Positions 1,503 through 9,007 of a stretch of DNA of 64,000 bases are shown here, piece after piece; the first letter of the stretch is position 1, and the number at the start of each line of letters is the position of its first letter. Origin of the DNA: Verrucomicrobiia bacterium (GTDB lineage: Bacteria; Verrucomicrobiota; Verrucomicrobiia; Limisphaerales; UBA1100); contig JAAZZB010000006.1 of assembly GCA_014239365.1 (NCBI GenBank), positions 75,189-139,188 of the forward strand. The letters run 5' to 3'. The position numbers and the translations under genes are program-made. The notes below the pieces were generated by a model. That model made no database searches. It saw only the letters and a list, made by a program, of their open reading frames with translations, and had not been told where the DNA came from.

Positions 1503-2168
1503 TTAAGTTTTATCCGGCCCCGGCTCGATTGTCGCAATGGCGTGCAACAAATCGGTGGCGGCTTGGTGATATAATTTTTTGAGCTGTTCTTTGTCTTTGG
1601 TTTCGTTTGCCTTGGCCCGAAGGTCGCGGAAGTCGAGCGGTTCGCCAAACTTTATTTCCACCCGATAAGGACGCGGAAACCAATGATGCCGGTTGAAGGC
1701 TTCGTACGAGCCGAATAATTTGACGGGAACCACGGGCGCATCGCTCTTGAGAATGATGAGGCCCACGCCGGGCTGCGGGGCTTGGATTTGGCCGGTGTGC
1801 GAGCGGGTGCCTTCGGGATACATCATCACCGCATCCCCGGCGCGCAGGCGGGTGAAGAAGGTTTTCAAGCCGCGGCCACTGCCGGATTGGTCCACGGGAA
1901 TGACGCCCCAACTGTGCAGCAACGTCCCGACCAATGGAACTTTGTAAGCACTGGCGCGCGCGAGGGCGATGACCAATCGCTGCACGGAACAGACCATATA
2001 AAATGGATCGAGATAACTGACGTGATTGGAGGCAAGAATCACGCCGCCGGTTTGCGGCACGCGATCGTTGTGCAATACGCGGCGGCGAATCCAAGTGCGC
2101 GTGAATAGCCCCGAGATGAACCGGGCCAGCCGATACGAAACACCGATGCGCGTGGGGGTTCGTGCCAT
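1503..2168 (-). CDS. PlsC-like lysophospholipid acyltransferase
   Basis: NHVSYLD (HX4D) and YPEGTRS motifs; start MARTPT 2 nt after the SDR stop. Confidence 0.9.
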   Translation of the reverse strand: MARTPTRIGVSYRLARFISGLFTRTWIRRRVLHNDRVPQTGGVILASNHVSYLDPFYMVCSVQRLVIALARASAYKVPLVGTLLHSWGVIPVDQSGSGRGLKTFFTRLRAGDAVMMYPEGTRSHTGQIQAPQPGVGLIILKSDAPVVPVKLFGSYEAFNRHHWFPRPYRVEIKFGEPLDFRDLRAKANETKDKEQLKKLYHQAATDLLHAIATIEPGPDKT

Positions 2169-2170
2169 TG

Positions 2171-2977
2171 CTATTTCCCTTGCCCGCGAAAAATGCGCAG
2201 CACTTTGCGGCGCAACAGCGCGGGCCACAGCGCTTTGAGAATGGGCGCGAGGCGCAGGCGCGGCGGGATGATAAGTTCATGCCGGCGCTCGCGCATCGCG
2301 TCGATGATTTCGCGCGCGCATTGTTCCAGCGTGATGGACTCGTGATTGTGCGAGCGTTTGCTTTCGCCCATCGCCGCGCCATCGCCGGTGCACGCGTTGG
2401 CGCGCATTTGGGTGCCTTGAATCCAATGCGGATGGACGGTCAAAATATCAACGCCGGTTTCCTCCAGCTCGTAGCGCAGCGTATCGCAAAAGCCTTCGAG
2501 CGCGTGTTTGCTGGCAACGTATCCGGAATGCGCGGGCACGGCGATTTTGCCTTGGATGCTGCCGATGGAAACGACGAGCCCGCCGGACTTCTTAAGCGCG
2601 GGCAATGCAAAGTGCAGCGTGTGCACGAGGCCAAGATAGTTCACCTCCATCAAGCGGCGAAACAAACTGAGGTCAGTCACTTCCTCGAACTTGGCCCACA
2701 TACTGAGGCCGGCGTTTGAGATGAGAAAATCAATGCCGCCAAAGCGCTCGGTGGTTTTGGCGATGAGGCGTTCGCAATCTTCGGGCTGCGTGACATCGCC
2801 GGTGACGGCCATCGCTTCGCCGCCCGCCGCTTCGCATTCGGCCACGGCTTCGGCAAGGGCCTCGGCGTTGCGGGCGAATAGCACAATGCGACAACGCCGT
2901 GCGGCGAGATCGCGCACGAGTTGGCGGCCCAAGCCGGATGAGGCGCCGGTGATGATGACAACTTTTTTGGCAAACAT
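2171..2977 (-). CDS. SDR oxidoreductase, DHRS7B/PexRAP-like (putative acyl/alkyl-DHAP reductase)
   Basis: TGASSGLG, SNAG and YVASK motifs; GSIQGK..ASKHA..F.D.LR.E and ANACTGDG resemble DHRS7B as recalled. Confidence 0.85.
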   Translation of the reverse strand: MFAKKVVIITGASSGLGRQLVRDLAARRCRIVLFARNAEALAEAVAECEAAGGEAMAVTGDVTQPEDCERLIAKTTERFGGIDFLISNAGLSMWAKFEEVTDLSLFRRLMEVNYLGLVHTLHFALPALKKSGGLVVSIGSIQGKIAVPAHSGYVASKHALEGFCDTLRYELEETGVDILTVHPHWIQGTQMRANACTGDGAAMGESKRSHNHESITLEQCAREIIDAMRERRHELIIPPRLRLAPILKALWPALLRRKVLRIFRGQGK

Positions 2978-4722
2978 TAGTCCGCCTTGTTGAACGACGC
3001 AATGGCCTCATCGGTCAAGCCCCATTCGCGGAGGGGATCGGGGCCGGGAATGATTTTGCCGGGGTTCATCACGGCTTTGGGGTCGAGGCCGTCTTTGATG
3101 GCGCGCACGGCTTTGACGCCGGTGGGCGAAAGATCGGCCTCAATCCACGGGAGATGCTCCGTGCCGATGGCGTGATGATGGCTAACGGTGCCGCCGTTTT
3201 GGAGGAAGGAATCTTCGGCGGCTTTTTTGATGTAAAGATATTGATCCATCTCGCGGCCTTCGATTTGGCGGCAGCCGAAGGTGAAGTAGAGGCTCGCGCC
3301 GGTGTGATAGTTGTGGCTGATGTGGCAGCCGACCCACGGATCCGCGCCGGTATCACGAATGGCTTGTTGGATGTTGGCGAGGGTTTTGGTGTAAAGATTG
3401 TGGAGGTTCTCCCACGTGGTGGAAGTTTCGCTGACGTCGCCCATCACGCCGCGGTCCATCAAATAATCGCGGACGTGCGGGAAATCATACTTCGCTTCCT
3501 TAAAGGAATTGCCCGGACCTTCGCCGAGGTTCACGCCGCCGTGCTTTCGGAAAACCCGATTGGATTCCCGCCGCTGCAAATGGAACGTATCGTAATCGCC
3601 TTCGTATGCGGTGGTCATCATACAGCACTTTGTAAAATCAATGCCTTTGATGTTGCGCAAATACCATTTCATTACCGCGCCGATTTTTTGTTTCAACGGC
3701 GACTCCACTTTTTTGAAGGCCGCGCTCAGGGCCGTTTTGCCCGGATCGTTAAGGCGCGTGATGATCGGCATCGCACCGTGCCGCATGCATTCGTGGATGG
3801 CGTGAATGCCACTTTCGAAATCCGGGAACAACCAACCTTCAAACAATTTATATTCCGGCAAGCGATGCACTTGCATCGTCACCTCGGTGATGACGCCGAG
3901 GATGCCTTCGCTGCCCACGCACAAACTCCGCACGTCAATTCCATTGGAAGTATTGGGAACCGTGCGCGTGACGATCGTGCCGCTGGGCGTGACCATCCGC
4001 ACCGCGATGACCATATCCTCAATCTTGCCGTACTTGTCGCTTTGCATTCCCGCCGAACGCGTGGCCACCCAACCGCCGAGCGTGGAGTGCACAAACGAAT
4101 CCGGGAAATGCCCAAGCGTAACGCCTTCCGCCTCAAGCTGTTCCTCCATATGCGGCCCATAAACGCCGGCCTCAATGCGGGCGAGTAGCGATTTTTTATC
4201 AACCGCCAACACGCGATGCATCCGGCACATATCGAGGCTCACAATGAATCGCCCATCGCGATCTTTCGGCTCAATGCAACCGGCGATGTTCGTGCCACCG
4301 CCAAACGGAATGAGCACGGCGTTGTGTTCGTGGGCGGCTTTGACGATGGCCACCACGTCATCTTCGCTCGCGGGATAGACAACGAGATCCGGCGCGAAGT
4401 CCACTTGCCCGCGCCGCAAGCGAAACAAATCGCGAAAGGCTTTTCCGGCGGCATGGATGAGGCGATCTTTTTTGTCGACGGAAAATTGGTCGCCCGAAAG
4501 CGCGTCGCGCAACGCCGCAAGAAAAGGCGCATTCTCTTTCGCCGCGGGCAGATGCACGTCATCAAACTTCACCGGCGGCGTGGGCTCGACTTGTTCCAGC
4601 CCCAACTCGCCGCTGAGGTACGGCCACAGCTTCGGCTTGTCGGCATCGCTGAAGCTCACGTCCTCGTGGCCCCAGCCCCACCATTTCATATGGCGAATTT
4701 TGGGTTCGGAAGAATTAGCCAT
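2977..4722 (-). CDS. Alkyldihydroxyacetonephosphate synthase-like FAD oxidoreductase (AGPS)
   Basis: KWWGWG, PFGGGTN, GHFPDS...STLGGWVATRSAG...YGKIED, GSEGILGVITE and the SHHHAIG triple-His motif. Confidence 0.88.
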   Translation of the reverse strand: MANSSEPKIRHMKWWGWGHEDVSFSDADKPKLWPYLSGELGLEQVEPTPPVKFDDVHLPAAKENAPFLAALRDALSGDQFSVDKKDRLIHAAGKAFRDLFRLRRGQVDFAPDLVVYPASEDDVVAIVKAAHEHNAVLIPFGGGTNIAGCIEPKDRDGRFIVSLDMCRMHRVLAVDKKSLLARIEAGVYGPHMEEQLEAEGVTLGHFPDSFVHSTLGGWVATRSAGMQSDKYGKIEDMVIAVRMVTPSGTIVTRTVPNTSNGIDVRSLCVGSEGILGVITEVTMQVHRLPEYKLFEGWLFPDFESGIHAIHECMRHGAMPIITRLNDPGKTALSAAFKKVESPLKQKIGAVMKWYLRNIKGIDFTKCCMMTTAYEGDYDTFHLQRRESNRVFRKHGGVNLGEGPGNSFKEAKYDFPHVRDYLMDRGVMGDVSETSTTWENLHNLYTKTLANIQQAIRDTGADPWVGCHISHNYHTGASLYFTFGCRQIEGREMDQYLYIKKAAEDSFLQNGGTVSHHHAIGTEHLPWIEADLSPTGVKAVRAIKDGLDPKAVMNPGKIIPGPDPLREWGLTDEAIASFNKAD

Positions 4723-5443
4723 GGAGTTCCTTCAACTTGTGAATGCGTTTTTCCATTTCGCGAGTGATGGCACTATAAATCATTCGACCGCCGCCATGTT
4801 CCTCGCGAAAGCGGTTCGGGTCAATCGCTTCCCCGATATAAACCCGCAATCGCGTGGGCTTGAAAAATTTGCCGCCCTTCGGATACGCGCGGTGCGTGCC
4901 GTTGATATAAACCGGCACGATGGGCAAACTCAATTCAGTGGCAATCATCGCCGGCCCCTTTTTCATCGGAGCCATCTCGCCGGTTTGCGAGCGCGTGCCT
5001 TCAGGATAAATAATGAGGCTGCGATGGCCGTGGGTGGTGAACTCGCGGCACGCCACCATCAGCTTCACGATGCTCTCGCGATTGGCGCCGCGATCGGCGG
5101 GAATGAGATTCATCAGGCGCGAGAGAAAGCTGTTGCGCTTTTCGTTGTCGAAAAAATAATCCTTCGCCGCCACCATTCCGTATTGTTCGAAATCCTCGCC
5201 GCCGGCGTACATCAACGCGGCGCTGTCCATATGGCTGCAGTGATTGCTGCAAAACATAAACGGCGCGGACGGCAGATTTTCGCGGCCCACCACCTTGAGT
5301 GGGCACCACACATTAAAAAGCACGCGGCAAAACAGCTCGAAAAATTTGTGCCACATCGCCGCCTTGCCGCGCGGCGATTTGCGCAGATAGCCGTACTCCG
5401 GCTCGAGTTCCGCCTCTTTCAGTAATTCCTGAAAGCTCGACAC
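4715..5443 (-). CDS. PlsC-family acyltransferase (candidate DHAP acyltransferase)
   Basis: NHCSHMD (HX4D) and IYPEGTRS motifs; GTG start at 5443 with GGAGG Shine-Dalgarno upstream; overlaps the AGPS start by 8 nt. Confidence 0.88.
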   Translation of the reverse strand: MSSFQELLKEAELEPEYGYLRKSPRGKAAMWHKFFELFCRVLFNVWCPLKVVGRENLPSAPFMFCSNHCSHMDSAALMYAGGEDFEQYGMVAAKDYFFDNEKRNSFLSRLMNLIPADRGANRESIVKLMVACREFTTHGHRSLIIYPEGTRSQTGEMAPMKKGPAMIATELSLPIVPVYINGTHRAYPKGGKFFKPTRLRVYIGEAIDPNRFREEHGGGRMIYSAITREMEKRIHKLKELHG

Positions 5444-5445
5444 GC

Positions 5446-6597
5446 TTACCTCCCGAATTTCGCGTGGGCCTCGGCGAACTCGTTGCTCACGATGGCCCCC
5501 GCCAGTGAAATTTCCAGCGCCAATGCTGACGCACAAATGATCTCCGCCAGTTTGCGCGATGAATGTTCGCCCCCGGCGCAGCCCAATAATTCCAAGTTCG
5601 CCCGTTGCGCGTGCAGCCGCGTGGCCCCGCCCACCGTGCCCACCGTCACGCTCGGCATACTCAGCGTGGCATATAAATCGTCCCCGCGTTTTTCGTACGT
5701 CGCAATGCCGATGGCGTTCTCCGCGACGCACGCGACATCCTGCCCCAACGCGAGATAAAGCGCCGCCAACGCGTTGGCGGTGTGGAGGTTCATCCCCAGC
5801 ATCCCGGCCATTTGCGAGCCGAGATGTTTATCGGTAAGCGCTTCGATGAGTTGATCGGCCGTGACGCGCAGTAATTTTTTTAGGATGCGATTGGGAATTT
5901 GGAAACTGGCGATGACGTGATGGCCGCGCCCTTTGATGAGGCTGCGATGCGCGGGGTTTTTGTCCGCATTAAAATTGCTTTCCAGCAAATATCGCAACGG
6001 CGTTTCGCCGGAAAGATTTTCGACAATGTAACGGCACGCGGCATCGGTGCTCAACGTCACCATATTTTGTCCGGCGGCCTCGGCGGTGTGATAAATGAAA
6101 TCGAGGATGACGCGGTTGTGGATGATGTGTTTATCGATCCGCAACAGTTTGCCGTGGCGCGTGGTGCTTTCGGCCGCTTTTTTGATGTCGTCATAACGAG
6201 CGTCGATGATTTTGAGAAAAGCCATCGCCTCTTCGATTTCATCAAACCGAAACACCGGCGCGCGCGAAAGTTCCTGCTTCACGTGGCGCGTCTTGATGCC
6301 GCCCGCGCGATGGGTCAGATAAAATCCGCGCGTCATCGAAAGGCTCAGCGTGCCCTCCACCGTGCACAGCGGCACATAAAAATCTCCCTGCGCGTAAGTG
6401 CCGTCGATTTTCAACGGGCCCGAAATGCTCAACGGCAGACCAACAAAGCCCACGTGATTTTCGATGAGCCCCTTGAGATTTTCCGGATCATCCAGCGCAA
6501 ACGCCGGCATCGCGTGCCCCGTCTGCTCCTCCAGCCATTGCTGGCGCGCCTCGGTATCCGCTTGGGCGTACCCGCGCGGTGGTGTCAATTTATTCAT
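5446..6597 (-). CDS. HMG-CoA reductase family protein (class I-like, catalytic domain only)
   Basis: ENHVG, CTVEG (catalytic Glu), EAAGQNMV, ADKN, LGQDVA (catalytic Asp), GTVGGAT and the C-terminal AHAK His. Confidence 0.9.
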   Translation of the reverse strand: MNKLTPPRGYAQADTEARQQWLEEQTGHAMPAFALDDPENLKGLIENHVGFVGLPLSISGPLKIDGTYAQGDFYVPLCTVEGTLSLSMTRGFYLTHRAGGIKTRHVKQELSRAPVFRFDEIEEAMAFLKIIDARYDDIKKAAESTTRHGKLLRIDKHIIHNRVILDFIYHTAEAAGQNMVTLSTDAACRYIVENLSGETPLRYLLESNFNADKNPAHRSLIKGRGHHVIASFQIPNRILKKLLRVTADQLIEALTDKHLGSQMAGMLGMNLHTANALAALYLALGQDVACVAENAIGIATYEKRGDDLYATLSMPSVTVGTVGGATRLHAQRANLELLGCAGGEHSSRKLAEIICASALALEISLAGAIVSNEFAEAHAKFGR

Positions 6598-6694
6598 AGT
6601 GTTGGCCAAAACCGCCCGAAAAAGCGGGCCCGCGGCGTTGGGTCGCTCATCGCGGATGCGGGCAATCTAGCGACAAAACCCCGTCAGTCCAGCA

Positions 6695-9007
6695 TTACTT
6701 GCCCATCTTGCCCGCATCACGCCCCAGCCACGCCGGCAACAAACCCAGCGCCGCCACCAACGCCCCCGCCAAACCCGCCGCCAACAGCAACCCAAAATGC
6801 ACCACCGGCGGAAAGGACGCGAATGCGAACACACACAAAATCCCTCCCAGGATCACCGTGGTGCAAACGATTGGCCGGCACTTCACCTCCAACGTTTCCT
6901 TCAACGCCGCATTGCCGTCCAGCCCGCGCGCGCGCGCCATCCGCCAGTGCGTGATGAAATGAATCGTGTCGTCCACCGCAATCCCAAAGGCCACCGCCGC
7001 CACCATGATGGTGATCGCGTTCAAGGGCACGCCGGCGAAGCCCTGCAGCGCCACCACCAACCCCACCGGCAGCACGTTGATGAACAGCGCAATGAGCGCC
7101 AGCGACAGCGACCGCCAAATCACCACCAACGCCAACCCCACCAACGCGCACGTGATGCCCGCCGTACTCGTTTGGCTGTCCACGATCACGCGATCCGCCT
7201 CGAGGACTTCATGGATGCCTTGCGTGGCCGAGATCCCAATCGTCGCATTCGGTCGTGCATCGGCCAGTTCCCGCACCAACGAATGAATCATCGTGATATA
7301 TTCCTCCGCCGCCATAAAGCGCGTGCGGACGTACAAATACGTTTTACGTTTTCCTTCATCAAACAGGATGTCCATCAACGGCAGCATTTCCTCGAACGCT
7401 TCCGAGCTAAGGATGCTCAACATATTCGGCTTCAACAATTTCTCGGCCATCACGCGCACCAGCGTTGACTCATCATCCACCGCCGCGTGATAGATCTGAT
7501 CCAACACCCACGGGTAAACATAAGCCACCTCCACTTCCTCGTGCGCGATGGCAATTGCCCGCGCGCGGTTCAAAAACTCCACAAACTTTTTGTCACTCAC
7601 GCCGTCCGCCCGGCCGGAATCAATCTCGATGCGCAGCACATTGATGCCGCCACATTCGCGATCGCACAGTTCCACCACTTGCCGCGTGGGACTTGCCGGC
7701 TCCAGAAATTCCGTGGCGCGAATATCCGTGCGCACCTTTGACCAACCCCAAACCATCGCGCCCACCAGCAGCAACGTGCCCACCGCAATCGCCGGACGCC
7801 ACCGGCGCACCCGGTCCAGCCACCGCCCGTAATCCAGCGGTAACGTCTTTTCTCGAACCGCCGCGGACACATTGCCCGCGTGCAGAAAACGCAATAGCAT
7901 CAACGCCGGACCGAAGGTGATGGAGAACATCAAAATCATTCCCGCGCCGCCGATGAACCCGAATTCACGAATCGACGGCACCTCGCTGGCCATCAACGAA
8001 AATAATCCCGCCGCCGTGGTCAGTCCCGCGAAGGCGCTGCTGCGGAATACTGTTTCGAACACCGCCCGCACCGCGTCCTCCGCCGACTGCCCCGCGTTGC
8101 GGGCGCGTTGATACGCCGTGCCCACGTGAATGAGCATCGCCAAATGCAGGCCCGTGAGCAGCGGAAAAAGCATCACCGTAAACACGTTTGCCTTGTCGCT
8201 AATCAGCGTGATCAATCCCGGCAACGCCGCCAAGCCCAGCACTTGTGCGAGCAACACCGCCAGCACCATCCACAACGAACACCGAAACGTCAGCAACAAC
8301 ACCCCCAACAAAACCGCCGAAGCGATGGGCAGGAACAGCCGCATATCCCTCCACAGCGTCAGCCGAATTTCCTCCTCCGCGTGCGGGGCGGACAACACTT
8401 GAAATCGCTGCCCCATTCCCGCAAACGGCGCCAGCGTGGCATTGATGGACTCCACGTATTTTTGGTTGGACTCCGAAGTGCTGACGTCCGCCTCGCACAT
8501 CAGCCACATCATCGCGCGGCGGTTGTCCGGCGTGACCAAAAAATTTTGCAGCAACGGCAGCCGATCCTTGCAATACCCGCGCGCCGTTTCCAACTCCGCC
8601 TCGCTCAAGCCCGCGATCAATGGCTGCATTTTCAACGGCGGCACCGACGTCAACGCCACCTCCGGACGAAACGGTGGATACACCAAACTCAAGGCATGAT
8701 AAACATGCGGATTGGCCATGCACGCCGTGCTGATCTCCCGCAGGCGCACGATCGATTCCGGCGCGAACACATCGTCGAACTCCACCACCACCAGCGCAAA
8801 CACGAGGTTGTCCTCCACCTGCGCCATCCGGCTGTTGACCGACTTGTACCCCTCCAAGCTGCGTTGATCGCCCGAAAGCAGCACCTCCAAATCCGCCCCC
8901 AACTTGAAATGATCCATCCGCCCAATCAGCCCCATGCAAACCAGCGCCACCAGCACGGCCCACAACCGAAACGGATCAAGATTGAATTTTCCCTTCGGAA
9001 CCTCCAC
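6695..9007 (-). CDS. MMPL/RND family transporter
   Basis: Two halves of 1 TM + soluble loop + 5 TM; GLTTAAGLFSL and GIAVDDTIHF motifs. Confidence 0.88.
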   Translation of the reverse strand: MEVPKGKFNLDPFRLWAVLVALVCMGLIGRMDHFKLGADLEVLLSGDQRSLEGYKSVNSRMAQVEDNLVFALVVVEFDDVFAPESIVRLREISTACMANPHVYHALSLVYPPFRPEVALTSVPPLKMQPLIAGLSEAELETARGYCKDRLPLLQNFLVTPDNRRAMMWLMCEADVSTSESNQKYVESINATLAPFAGMGQRFQVLSAPHAEEEIRLTLWRDMRLFLPIASAVLLGVLLLTFRCSLWMVLAVLLAQVLGLAALPGLITLISDKANVFTVMLFPLLTGLHLAMLIHVGTAYQRARNAGQSAEDAVRAVFETVFRSSAFAGLTTAAGLFSLMASEVPSIREFGFIGGAGMILMFSITFGPALMLLRFLHAGNVSAAVREKTLPLDYGRWLDRVRRWRPAIAVGTLLLVGAMVWGWSKVRTDIRATEFLEPASPTRQVVELCDRECGGINVLRIEIDSGRADGVSDKKFVEFLNRARAIAIAHEEVEVAYVYPWVLDQIYHAAVDDESTLVRVMAEKLLKPNMLSILSSEAFEEMLPLMDILFDEGKRKTYLYVRTRFMAAEEYITMIHSLVRELADARPNATIGISATQGIHEVLEADRVIVDSQTSTAGITCALVGLALVVIWRSLSLALIALFINVLPVGLVVALQGFAGVPLNAITIMVAAVAFGIAVDDTIHFITHWRMARARGLDGNAALKETLEVKCRPIVCTTVILGGILCVFAFASFPPVVHFGLLLAAGLAGALVAALGLLPAWLGRDAGKMGK

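Follow-up and report, generated by a model that had tools for sequence, protein, structure and literature searches.

The 64,000-nucleotide stretch of a Verrucomicrobiia genome analyzed in this study (assembly GCA_014239365.1, contig JAAZZB010000006.1, positions 75,189 to 139,188), hereafter called the window, contains at positions 5446 to 6597 a gene encoding a homologue of class-I 3-hydroxy-3-methylglutaryl-CoA (HMG-CoA) reductases (HMGR). With a probability of about 0.78, the deduced protein represents a fatty acyl thioester reductase of the FcrA family that feeds an ether-lipid operon, as judged from its sequence and genomic context. The first-pass annotation of the window had regarded it as an HMGR homologue possibly repurposed as the alcohol-forming acyl-CoA reductase that supplies alkylglycerone-phosphate synthase (AGPS), and this proposal is supported by the deduced protein sequence, the gene content of the genome, synteny and published FcrA enzymology. 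The central idea, an HMGR homologue acting as fatty acyl reductase, has already been published, both as an enzyme family and as a hypothesis (PMC11948995). What the present comparison appears to add to the known family is a distinct FcrA subclade that lacks the Lad domain and is tied to AGPS.

Sequence features and phylogenetic position of the reductase

The first-pass annotation had located a real gene at the correct position, though it lies on the minus strand. The open reading frame extends from 5446 to 6609 with a TTG codon at position 6609, and the ATG codon at position 6597 is the start common to all aligned relatives. The Pfam model PF00368 (HMG-CoA reductase) matched residues 16-383 of the deduced protein with E=7e-103. 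Among the PDB structures, 6hr7 of Methanothermococcus thermolithotrophicus, a class-I HMGR, is the nearest (E=4.5e-82); the human enzyme (1dq8; see also 1DQ9) was matched with E=4e-48. The protein can thus be aligned from end to end with canonical class-I HMGRs, with which it shares the catalytic residues and the C-terminal helix segment that bears the catalytic His, and it is devoid of an N-terminal Lad domain (PF25653).

The sequence motifs TVEG, DKN, GQD, AHAK and DKHLGS quoted by the first-pass annotation were all detected in the protein. According to the HMMER alignment to human HMGR, TVEG holds E81 (human E559), GQD holds D287 (human D767) and AHAK holds H378 (human H866), while DKN comprises D212-K213-N214 aligned with human D690-K691-K692 and therefore has Asn in place of K692. 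The DKHLGS motif covers residues 256-261; compared with the canonical K-N-L-x-G-S segment, which contains K735, it lacks one residue. In the same alignment, the position of human Ser684 is occupied by Glu206 and that of Leu862 by Phe374. The HMG-binding set Ser684/Lys692/Lys735/Leu862 is accordingly represented by Glu/Asn/Lys or Asp/Phe, with the third residue depending on the alignment. Moreover, the protein reads AAGQNMV at the motif equivalent to the canonical DAMGMNM. It scored 303.6 bits with the NCBIfam equivalog model of HMGR, TIGR00533, which is below the cut-off of 441.8, and by this cut-off it is not an equivalog of canonical HMGR.

FcrA was named by Grossi et al. 2025 as a clade of class-I HMGR homologues (PMC11948995). 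The enzyme of 'Ca. Promineifilum breve', Pb-FcrA (CUS01882.1), reduces acyl-CoA with chains of at least C14 to the alcohol in an NADPH-dependent manner and performs both reductions without using free aldehyde; HMG-CoA and C16:1 aldehyde are not reduced, and simvastatin is no inhibitor (PMC11948995). The family is distinguished by the retention of the catalytic tetrad along with the exchange of Ser684 for Glu, of Leu862 for a bulky residue and of Lys735 (printed as 795) for small residues, and the enzyme of N. pharaonis carries Glu360 and Trp528 as diagnostic changes (PMC11948995). The spacing of the N. pharaonis positions 360/367/411/441/528/532 is identical to that of residues 206/213/257/287/374/378 of the window reductase, which are Glu/Lys/Lys/Asp/Phe/His. 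Two of the three diagnostic substitutions of FcrA, those at Ser684 and Leu862, are therefore present in the window protein. It differs from the studied FcrAs in reading DKN where these have DKK, in carrying Lys257 at the position of Gly411 of N. pharaonis and in lacking the Lad domain that both studied enzymes possess (PMC11948995).

These positions were compared across the clade to which the window protein belongs. E81, K213, D287 and H378 are invariant in the alignment of close homologues; in the wider clade, the Glu, Lys and Asp of the tetrad are present in all 86 rows and H378 in 84. The position of Ser684 is occupied by Glu in 84 of the 86 rows and by Asp in two, and that of Leu862 by Phe in 71 rows and by Trp in 14, with a gap in the remaining one. 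The three canonical archaeal HMGRs included in the same alignment have Ser (3/3) and Leu (3/3) at these positions. The DKN motif is typical of only one subclade (51/86 rows), and the Marinimicrobia subclade retains DKK.

The gene content of the genome was deduced from the assembly that contains the window, which has a size of 3.3 Mb, is split into 89 contigs and reaches a completeness of 93.6%. This assembly carries a single PF00368 gene, and it encodes Dxr (461.7 bits) and two IspH proteins of the methylerythritol phosphate (MEP) pathway. The C-terminal domain of HMG-CoA synthase and mevalonate diphosphate decarboxylase were not found in it. Likewise, mevalonate kinase was not found, the best match of 65 bits in the assembly being a GHMP kinase that matches the heptose-phosphate kinase model best, yet remains below the cut-off of that model. 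A search of the assembly with the FAR-type model NAD_binding_4 (PF07993) yielded four weak matches of 22-38 bits, all of which are sugar-nucleotide epimerases or dehydratases. The lack of genes for FAR, HMG-CoA synthase and mevalonate kinase that the first-pass annotation had reported for the window thus extends to the whole assembly, and the comparison of mevalonate and MEP genes that it had called for gave the MEP genes only. Bacteria that possess FcrA as their sole HMGR homologue have been described as being without the mevalonate pathway (PMC11948995). Most source records and databases call the gene 'hydroxymethylglutaryl-CoA reductase', a name that wrongly implies mevalonate metabolism in a bacterium with the MEP pathway.

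Trees were calculated from the window protein, its homologues from 93 distinct GTDB species-genome loci (18 from one homologue search and 80 from another, with 5 in common) and 147 representatives. The latter are the best 150 representatives of an exhaustive HMMER search (2976 proteins, E<=0.001), from which three fragments were dropped. FastTree was applied to 241 rows, and an IQ-TREE quick search with the LG+C20 model was applied to 86 rows chosen from 247. The canonical Ser/Leu signature is present in only 3 of the 147 representatives, two of which are the named HMGRs of Methanohalophilus and Acidilobus. Both trees split the canonical archaeal HMGRs from all other proteins with 99% support, and the window reductase belongs to a clade that has 100% support and comprises 86 rows, or 32 in the smaller tree. 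This clade stands on the same side as the proteins bearing PF25653, a domain that the assayed FcrAs have at their N-terminus (PMC11948995), away from the HMGRs of Methanohalophilus and Acidilobus. The window protein thus resembles FcrA in its class-I HMGR fold with catalytic Glu/Lys/Asp/His, in the exchanges at Ser684 (Glu) and Leu862 (aromatic residue), in a host genome in which the mevalonate pathway was not found and in its placement outside the canonical HMGR group; it differs in forming a separate, well-supported subclade with a long stem.

FcrA-like domains related to the window reductase also occur as fusions with AMP-binding/PP-binding modules and with APH-type kinases, and the AMP-binding/PP-binding fusions fit fatty-acyl substrates. 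Three fusion arrangements were observed among the proteins P0130, P0134, P0135, P0141, P0148, P0188, P0127 and P0129, namely an N-terminal AMP-binding module (with or without PP-binding), either DUF3419 or a C-terminal APH/EcKL-type kinase, and a PilZ domain, the last of which occurs in the group with Arg at the position of Ser684. The long N-terminal 'extensions' of L096 and L101 were rejected as domains and represent Arg-rich read-through.

Linkage of the reductase gene to AGPS

The clade of the window reductase comprises 79 loci, 67 of which are informative in that their sequence continues for at least 2.6 kb past the end of the reductase gene. In 62 of these 67 loci, an AGPS gene on the same strand starts no more than 1.5 kb downstream, whereas none of the 12 informative loci outside the clade carries one, which bears out the linkage of the two genes. 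The acyltransferase gene is positioned between the reductase and AGPS genes in 60 of the 62 AGPS-linked loci, so that the order reductase-acyltransferase-AGPS is found in 60/67 informative loci. Additionally, a gene for a short-chain dehydrogenase/reductase (SDR) directly follows AGPS in 50 of the 61 clade loci with at least 3.4 kb of downstream sequence. A second acyltransferase gene after the SDR gene and a gene for an MMPL transporter accompany this module only in the Verrucomicrobiota relatives.

The 64 AGPS-carrying loci span ten named phyla, with nine loci being unassigned. The majority belong to the Verrucomicrobiota (24) and to the Fidelibacterota/Marinimicrobia (15), followed by the Pseudomonadota (4), the Planctomycetota (3), the Spirochaetota, Bacteroidota and Ignavibacteriota (2 each) and the Lentisphaerota, Gemmatimonadota and Calditrichota (1 each). 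The first-pass annotation had proposed a test of whether DKN-type reductases co-occur with AGPS; the DKN subclade is indeed linked to AGPS, but the Marinimicrobia subclade, which keeps DKK, is linked to the same extent.

Within the order of the window's organism, 81 genomes (one per family) were searched, and a close homologue of the reductase was detected in three and AGPS in four of them. All three reductase carriers contain AGPS, and the fourth AGPS match is partial and occurs in a genome that is 78% complete. The patchy but joint distribution of the reductase and AGPS genes suggests that the module travels as one piece. In a phylum-level sample, 35 of 151 genomes matched; this sample is uninformative on co-occurrence, since besides the genome of the window no match exceeded 42% identity.

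Among the close relatives of the window locus (L012-L026), the reductase, acyltransferase and AGPS proteins are about 73-98% identical to those of the window, while the upstream MMPL gene occurs in two forms with 79-90% and 37-42% identity, respectively. In many Verrucomicrobiota relatives, the MMPL protein is only 37-42% identical while the reductase reaches 86-93%. The two forms of the MMPL gene beside steady reductase, acyltransferase and AGPS genes point to a boundary of recombination where the reductase gene begins. Two lineages of AGPS serve the same operon: the window type is nearest to Dictyostelium ADPS, while the AGPS of the Marinimicrobia (loci L051-L081) is 31% identical to that of the window and nearest to the mammalian enzyme (4bby, E=2.5e-132). 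In L024 and L078, a DKN-type reductase is paired with an AGPS that is only 30-32% identical to that of the window, as in the Marinimicrobia loci. The record of L031 is titled as a metagenome-assembled genome of Akkermansia muciniphila and contains the full set of reductase, acyltransferase, AGPS, SDR and second acyltransferase genes with 51-66% identity; this title is possibly wrong, because in both trees the sequence clusters with the relatives from the Verrucomicrobiota.

Other neighbourhoods were observed around genes without adjacent AGPS. The FcrA-like proteins of L087, L090, L091, L094, L096, L099 and L103 are about 41% identical to the window protein, and their genes adjoin genes of the PPDK_N/PEP-utilizer, DUF3419, CDP-alcohol/cytidylyltransferase, UbiA-type and AMP-binding/acyltransferase families, which looks like a different lipid module. 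In the Parachlamydiales loci L066 and L082, lpxD is followed by the reductase gene, by a gene of the fatty-acid-hydroxylase family and by a gene for a FadL-type outer-membrane transporter.

Operon structure and the predicted pathway

The genes of the window that accompany the reductase gene are compiled in Table 1. They all lie on the same strand. From the reductase gene to the acyltransferase 2 gene they are tightly spaced: gaps of 2 nt form the first and the last junction, and the second and third are overlaps of 8 nt and 1 nt, respectively. The GTG start codon of the acyltransferase 1 gene is located 2 nt past the stop codon of the reductase gene and is preceded by GGGAGG. The ATG codon of the AGPS gene lies within the 8-nt overlap with the end of the acyltransferase 1 gene, that of the SDR gene overlaps the AGPS stop codon (TAATG), and that of the acyltransferase 2 gene lies 2 nt past the SDR stop codon.

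Table 1. Positions and family assignments of the reductase gene and the neighbouring genes in the window
Gene product	Position	Strand	Length (aa)	Family or closest match
MMPL/HAE3-type RND transporter	6695..9007	minus	770	Pfam MMPL E=2.5e-30; sub-threshold NCBIfam HAE3 and HpnN
FcrA-like reductase	5446..6597	minus	383	class-I HMG-CoA reductase homologue, PF00368
Acyltransferase 1, PlsC family	4715..5443	minus	242	PF01553 E=1.2e-21; PDB 5kym PlsC E=1.6e-16
AGPS/ADPS	2977..4722	minus	581	Pfam FAD_binding_4 + FAD-oxidase_C
Classical SDR	2171..2977	minus	268	Pfam adh_short E=2.3e-50
Acyltransferase 2, PlsC family	1503..2168	minus	221	PF01553 E=4.9e-23

The AGPS protein was aligned over residues 45-558 with Dictyostelium ADPS (PDB 2uuu, E=5.5e-133) and matched the mammalian enzyme 4bby with E=3e-90; by homology it is a true AGPS orthologue. 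Outside the window, a partial second AGPS gene is present at a contig end of the same assembly (G000:C48:1-492) and is 92% identical to AGPS residues 418-581; it may reflect strain heterogeneity or a duplicate. The SDR protein scored 297.7 bits with the NCBIfam model NF004825, above its cut-off of 215. The acyltransferase 2 gene is masked by a longer spurious open reading frame in another frame, and it precedes pepA (47 to ~1486) by approximately 16 nt. This overlapping open reading frame (1510-2382, minus strand) was rejected as a gene, being rich in Arg and Ala and without a family match, and 1503-2168 represents the real gene.

The reductase gene had been described as heading the operon. 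It is the first gene of the tightly coupled set that is conserved across phyla, but the MMPL gene is located only 97 nt upstream on the same strand, so that a longer transcript is possible. A scan for promoters and terminators gave counts as in shuffled sequences, and no site was detected between the MMPL gene and the reductase gene. The transporter is a possible lipid exporter and is considered an accessory that stands outside the module conserved across phyla.

Taken together, the observed homologies, residue pattern, gene order and pathway content are consistent with the following scheme, in which all operon substrates and the lipid product are predicted. The FcrA-like reductase would be a descendant of class-I HMGR that has kept the four-electron reduction of a thioester to an alcohol but takes long-chain fatty acyl thioesters rather than HMG-CoA as substrates, and it would provide fatty alcohol in an NADPH-dependent manner as the first step of the pathway. 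Acyltransferase 1 is predicted to perform the GNPAT-like step that yields acyl-dihydroxyacetone phosphate (acyl-DHAP), with DHAP as its putative substrate. AGPS would then exchange the acyl group of acyl-DHAP for the fatty alcohol, whereby the ether bond is formed. The SDR protein is the predicted alkyl-DHAP (alkylglycerone phosphate) reductase, an assignment based on its position and on the eukaryotic pathway, and would convert alkyl-DHAP into 1-alkyl-glycerol-3-phosphate, which acyltransferase 2 is predicted to acylate at the sn-2 position in a fifth step. The expected products are precursors of 1-O-alkyl (plasmanyl) glycerophospholipids, synthesized by the route of the eukaryotic peroxisomal pathway, and the MMPL transporter encoded upstream may translocate the resulting lipid. 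The ethers are expected to be of the alkyl and not of the vinyl type because CarF/PEDS1 was not found in the assembly, in a search performed without positive control. In this scheme, FcrA would fill the slot that is held by the unrelated FAR in eukaryotes and myxobacteria.

Alternative functions and implications for bacterial ether lipids

Several observations weigh against the assignment of the reductase to an FcrA-type function in ether lipid synthesis. No AGPS gene is located nearby in five of the 67 informative clade loci (L037, L066, L080, L082 and L083). The third diagnostic change of FcrA, the replacement of Lys735 by a small residue, is lacking in the HMMER register, in which K257 pairs with K735; MAFFT pairs K735 with D256 instead, and Lys is not conserved in the clade at position 257, where the 86 rows most often have K (25), G (14), F (14), C (11) or A (10). 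Arg112, the counterpart of human Arg590 as counted on the HMMER alignment, shows no variation within the clade, and canonical HMGR likewise has an invariant Arg there. The support for the grouping of the window clade with the Lad-type proteins is moderate (89 in both trees), and the stem of the clade is long (0.46-0.51 substitutions per site) in addition to the missing Lad domain. Pb-FcrA and the N. pharaonis enzyme are absent from the trees, so that the link to them consists of domain architecture and residue pattern. Finally, the genome searched for pathway genes is incomplete (93.6%), and the searches in which the FAR C-terminal domain and the WS/DGAT domain were not found in the assembly were, like that for CarF/PEDS1, made without positive control.

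The long stem and the missing Lad domain imply that the acyl chain length or the carrier, CoA or acyl carrier protein (ACP), may differ from those of the studied FcrAs. These features would also suit a thioester reductase of the ether-lipid operon that departs from Pb-FcrA in its substrate or product, by using acyl-ACP, by accepting chains of other length or branching or by releasing an aldehyde that is then reduced by the SDR protein. The exchange of K692 for Asn in only one subclade points in the same direction, as does the alignment of the SDR protein with the C-terminal half of NF005539/PRK07201 (144.6 bits), a profile that was used for the AcrB reductase (PMC11948995). On the other hand, class-I HMGR chemistry and Pb-FcrA itself accomplish both reductions with no free aldehyde (PMC11948995), the pathway needs an alkyl-DHAP reductase for which the SDR protein is the only candidate of the operon, and the SDR gene follows AGPS, not the reductase gene, in 50/61 loci. 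Such a departure is considered unlikely.

The alcohol formed by an FcrA-type reductase might also be used chiefly elsewhere, for instance in wax esters or as alcohols that stay free or become phosphorylated, with the adjacency of AGPS being secondary. Wax-ester synthesis is the one role for which FcrA has been assayed, and wax esters are the alcohol sink in Natronomonas and 'Ca. Promineifilum' (PMC11948995); the five loci without AGPS and the fusions of related domains to APH-type kinases can be read in the same way. However, FcrA co-occurs with WS/DGAT (PMC11948995), for which the search of the window's assembly gave no match under the limit mentioned above, whereas the window reductase is encoded in a coupled operon with AGPS. 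The translational coupling to the acyltransferase and AGPS genes, the linkage in 62/67 loci and the presence of AGPS in all three reductase-positive genomes of the order sample make a different main sink quite improbable.

The first-pass annotation had offered isoprenoid alcohols, and hence hybrid lipids, as an alternative to a fatty acyl substrate. A genuine HMGR, which would form mevalonate for isoprenoids or for isoprenoid alcohols delivered to AGPS, could be reconciled with the full-length match to the class-I enzyme 6hr7, the intact tetrad, the conserved Arg112 and a Lys at or beside the position of K735. It is difficult to reconcile with the assayed relative, which does not reduce HMG-CoA (PMC11948995), with the score below the TIGR00533 cut-off, with the three exchanges S684E, K692N and L862F and the K735 segment shortened by one residue, or with trees that set the protein apart from canonical HMGRs. 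Since no enzyme that makes HMG-CoA or uses mevalonate was found in the assembly, which encodes Dxr and IspH, the isoprenoid version receives no support and is rejected, and a genuine HMGR is regarded as very improbable altogether. Least credible is a catabolic cluster in which the reductase would work in the oxidative direction and convert fatty alcohols, released from ether lipids taken up from the environment, to acyl-CoA; some HMGRs (class-II) act oxidatively in nature and the titles of related records suggest a marine heterotroph, but the two acyltransferases, AGPS and SDR are of biosynthetic types in pathway order, and no ether-cleaving enzyme is encoded within the operon.

With the FcrA-type function as the preferred interpretation, the operon can be compared with known ether-lipid systems. 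Some FcrAs have been proposed as possible suppliers of alcohol to AGPS and to ether lipid synthesis, AGPS is located nine genes away from Pb-FcrA in P. breve, and a PlsC-like gene adjoins fcrA in one genome (PMC11948995). In Myxococcus xanthus, the operon MXAN_1676-1675-1674 encodes AGPS and the FAR-GNPAT fusion 'FARAT' (PMC13012113). The window operon shares with this system, and with the eukaryotic pathway of FAR, GNPAT, AGPS and alkyl-DHAP reductase, the pathway logic, a true AGPS orthologue by homology and the joint encoding of alcohol supply, acyltransferase and AGPS. It differs in its reductase, which derives from HMGR and has no relation to FAR (PF07993), and in its acyltransferase, which forms a small protein of its own of the PlsC type. 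The myxobacterial ElbD protein of the elb cluster likewise represents an aerobic bacterial route to alkyl ether lipids with fatty-acyl reductase and PlsC-like modules, but it is one large FadD/ACP/FAR/PlsC-like protein that acts independently of AGPS, and it has no counterpart in the window operon.

A full-text literature search, which did not extend to the supplements of PMC11948995, revealed no paper describing this operon. Surveys of bacterial ether-lipid genes have used ElbD and Agps as queries (PMC11868695; bioRxiv 10.64898/2026.06.23.733905) or FAR, GNPAT, AGPS and PEDS1 (PMC13012113), and the survey passages of these three papers make no mention of FcrA or HMGR homologues. If the proposed function holds true, such surveys would score the pathway of carriers as incomplete, because the reductase is not a FAR.

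Read as FcrA, the reductase completes an otherwise FAR-less ether-lipid pathway in one operon and yields a compact five-gene set for alkyl ether lipids. The same step of the pathway would be served by FAR in eukaryotes and myxobacteria but by FcrA, an unrelated family of reductases, in the bacteria considered here. The occurrence of the operon in at least ten named phyla, including many uncultured marine groups, provides a concrete candidate genetic marker for bacterial alkyl ether lipid production. In a wider sense, the chances appear evenly balanced that the AGPS-linked FcrA subclade marks a self-contained, horizontally mobile module of four genes, encoding the reductase, the DHAP acyltransferase, AGPS and the alkyl-DHAP reductase, that serves abundant marine bacteria (Verrucomicrobiota, Marinimicrobia/Fidelibacterota, Planctomycetota and Ignavibacteriota) as their main aerobic way of making non-isoprenoid 1-O-alkyl glycerol lipids. 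If so, the module would name producers of the alkyl glycerol ethers of sea water and sediments.

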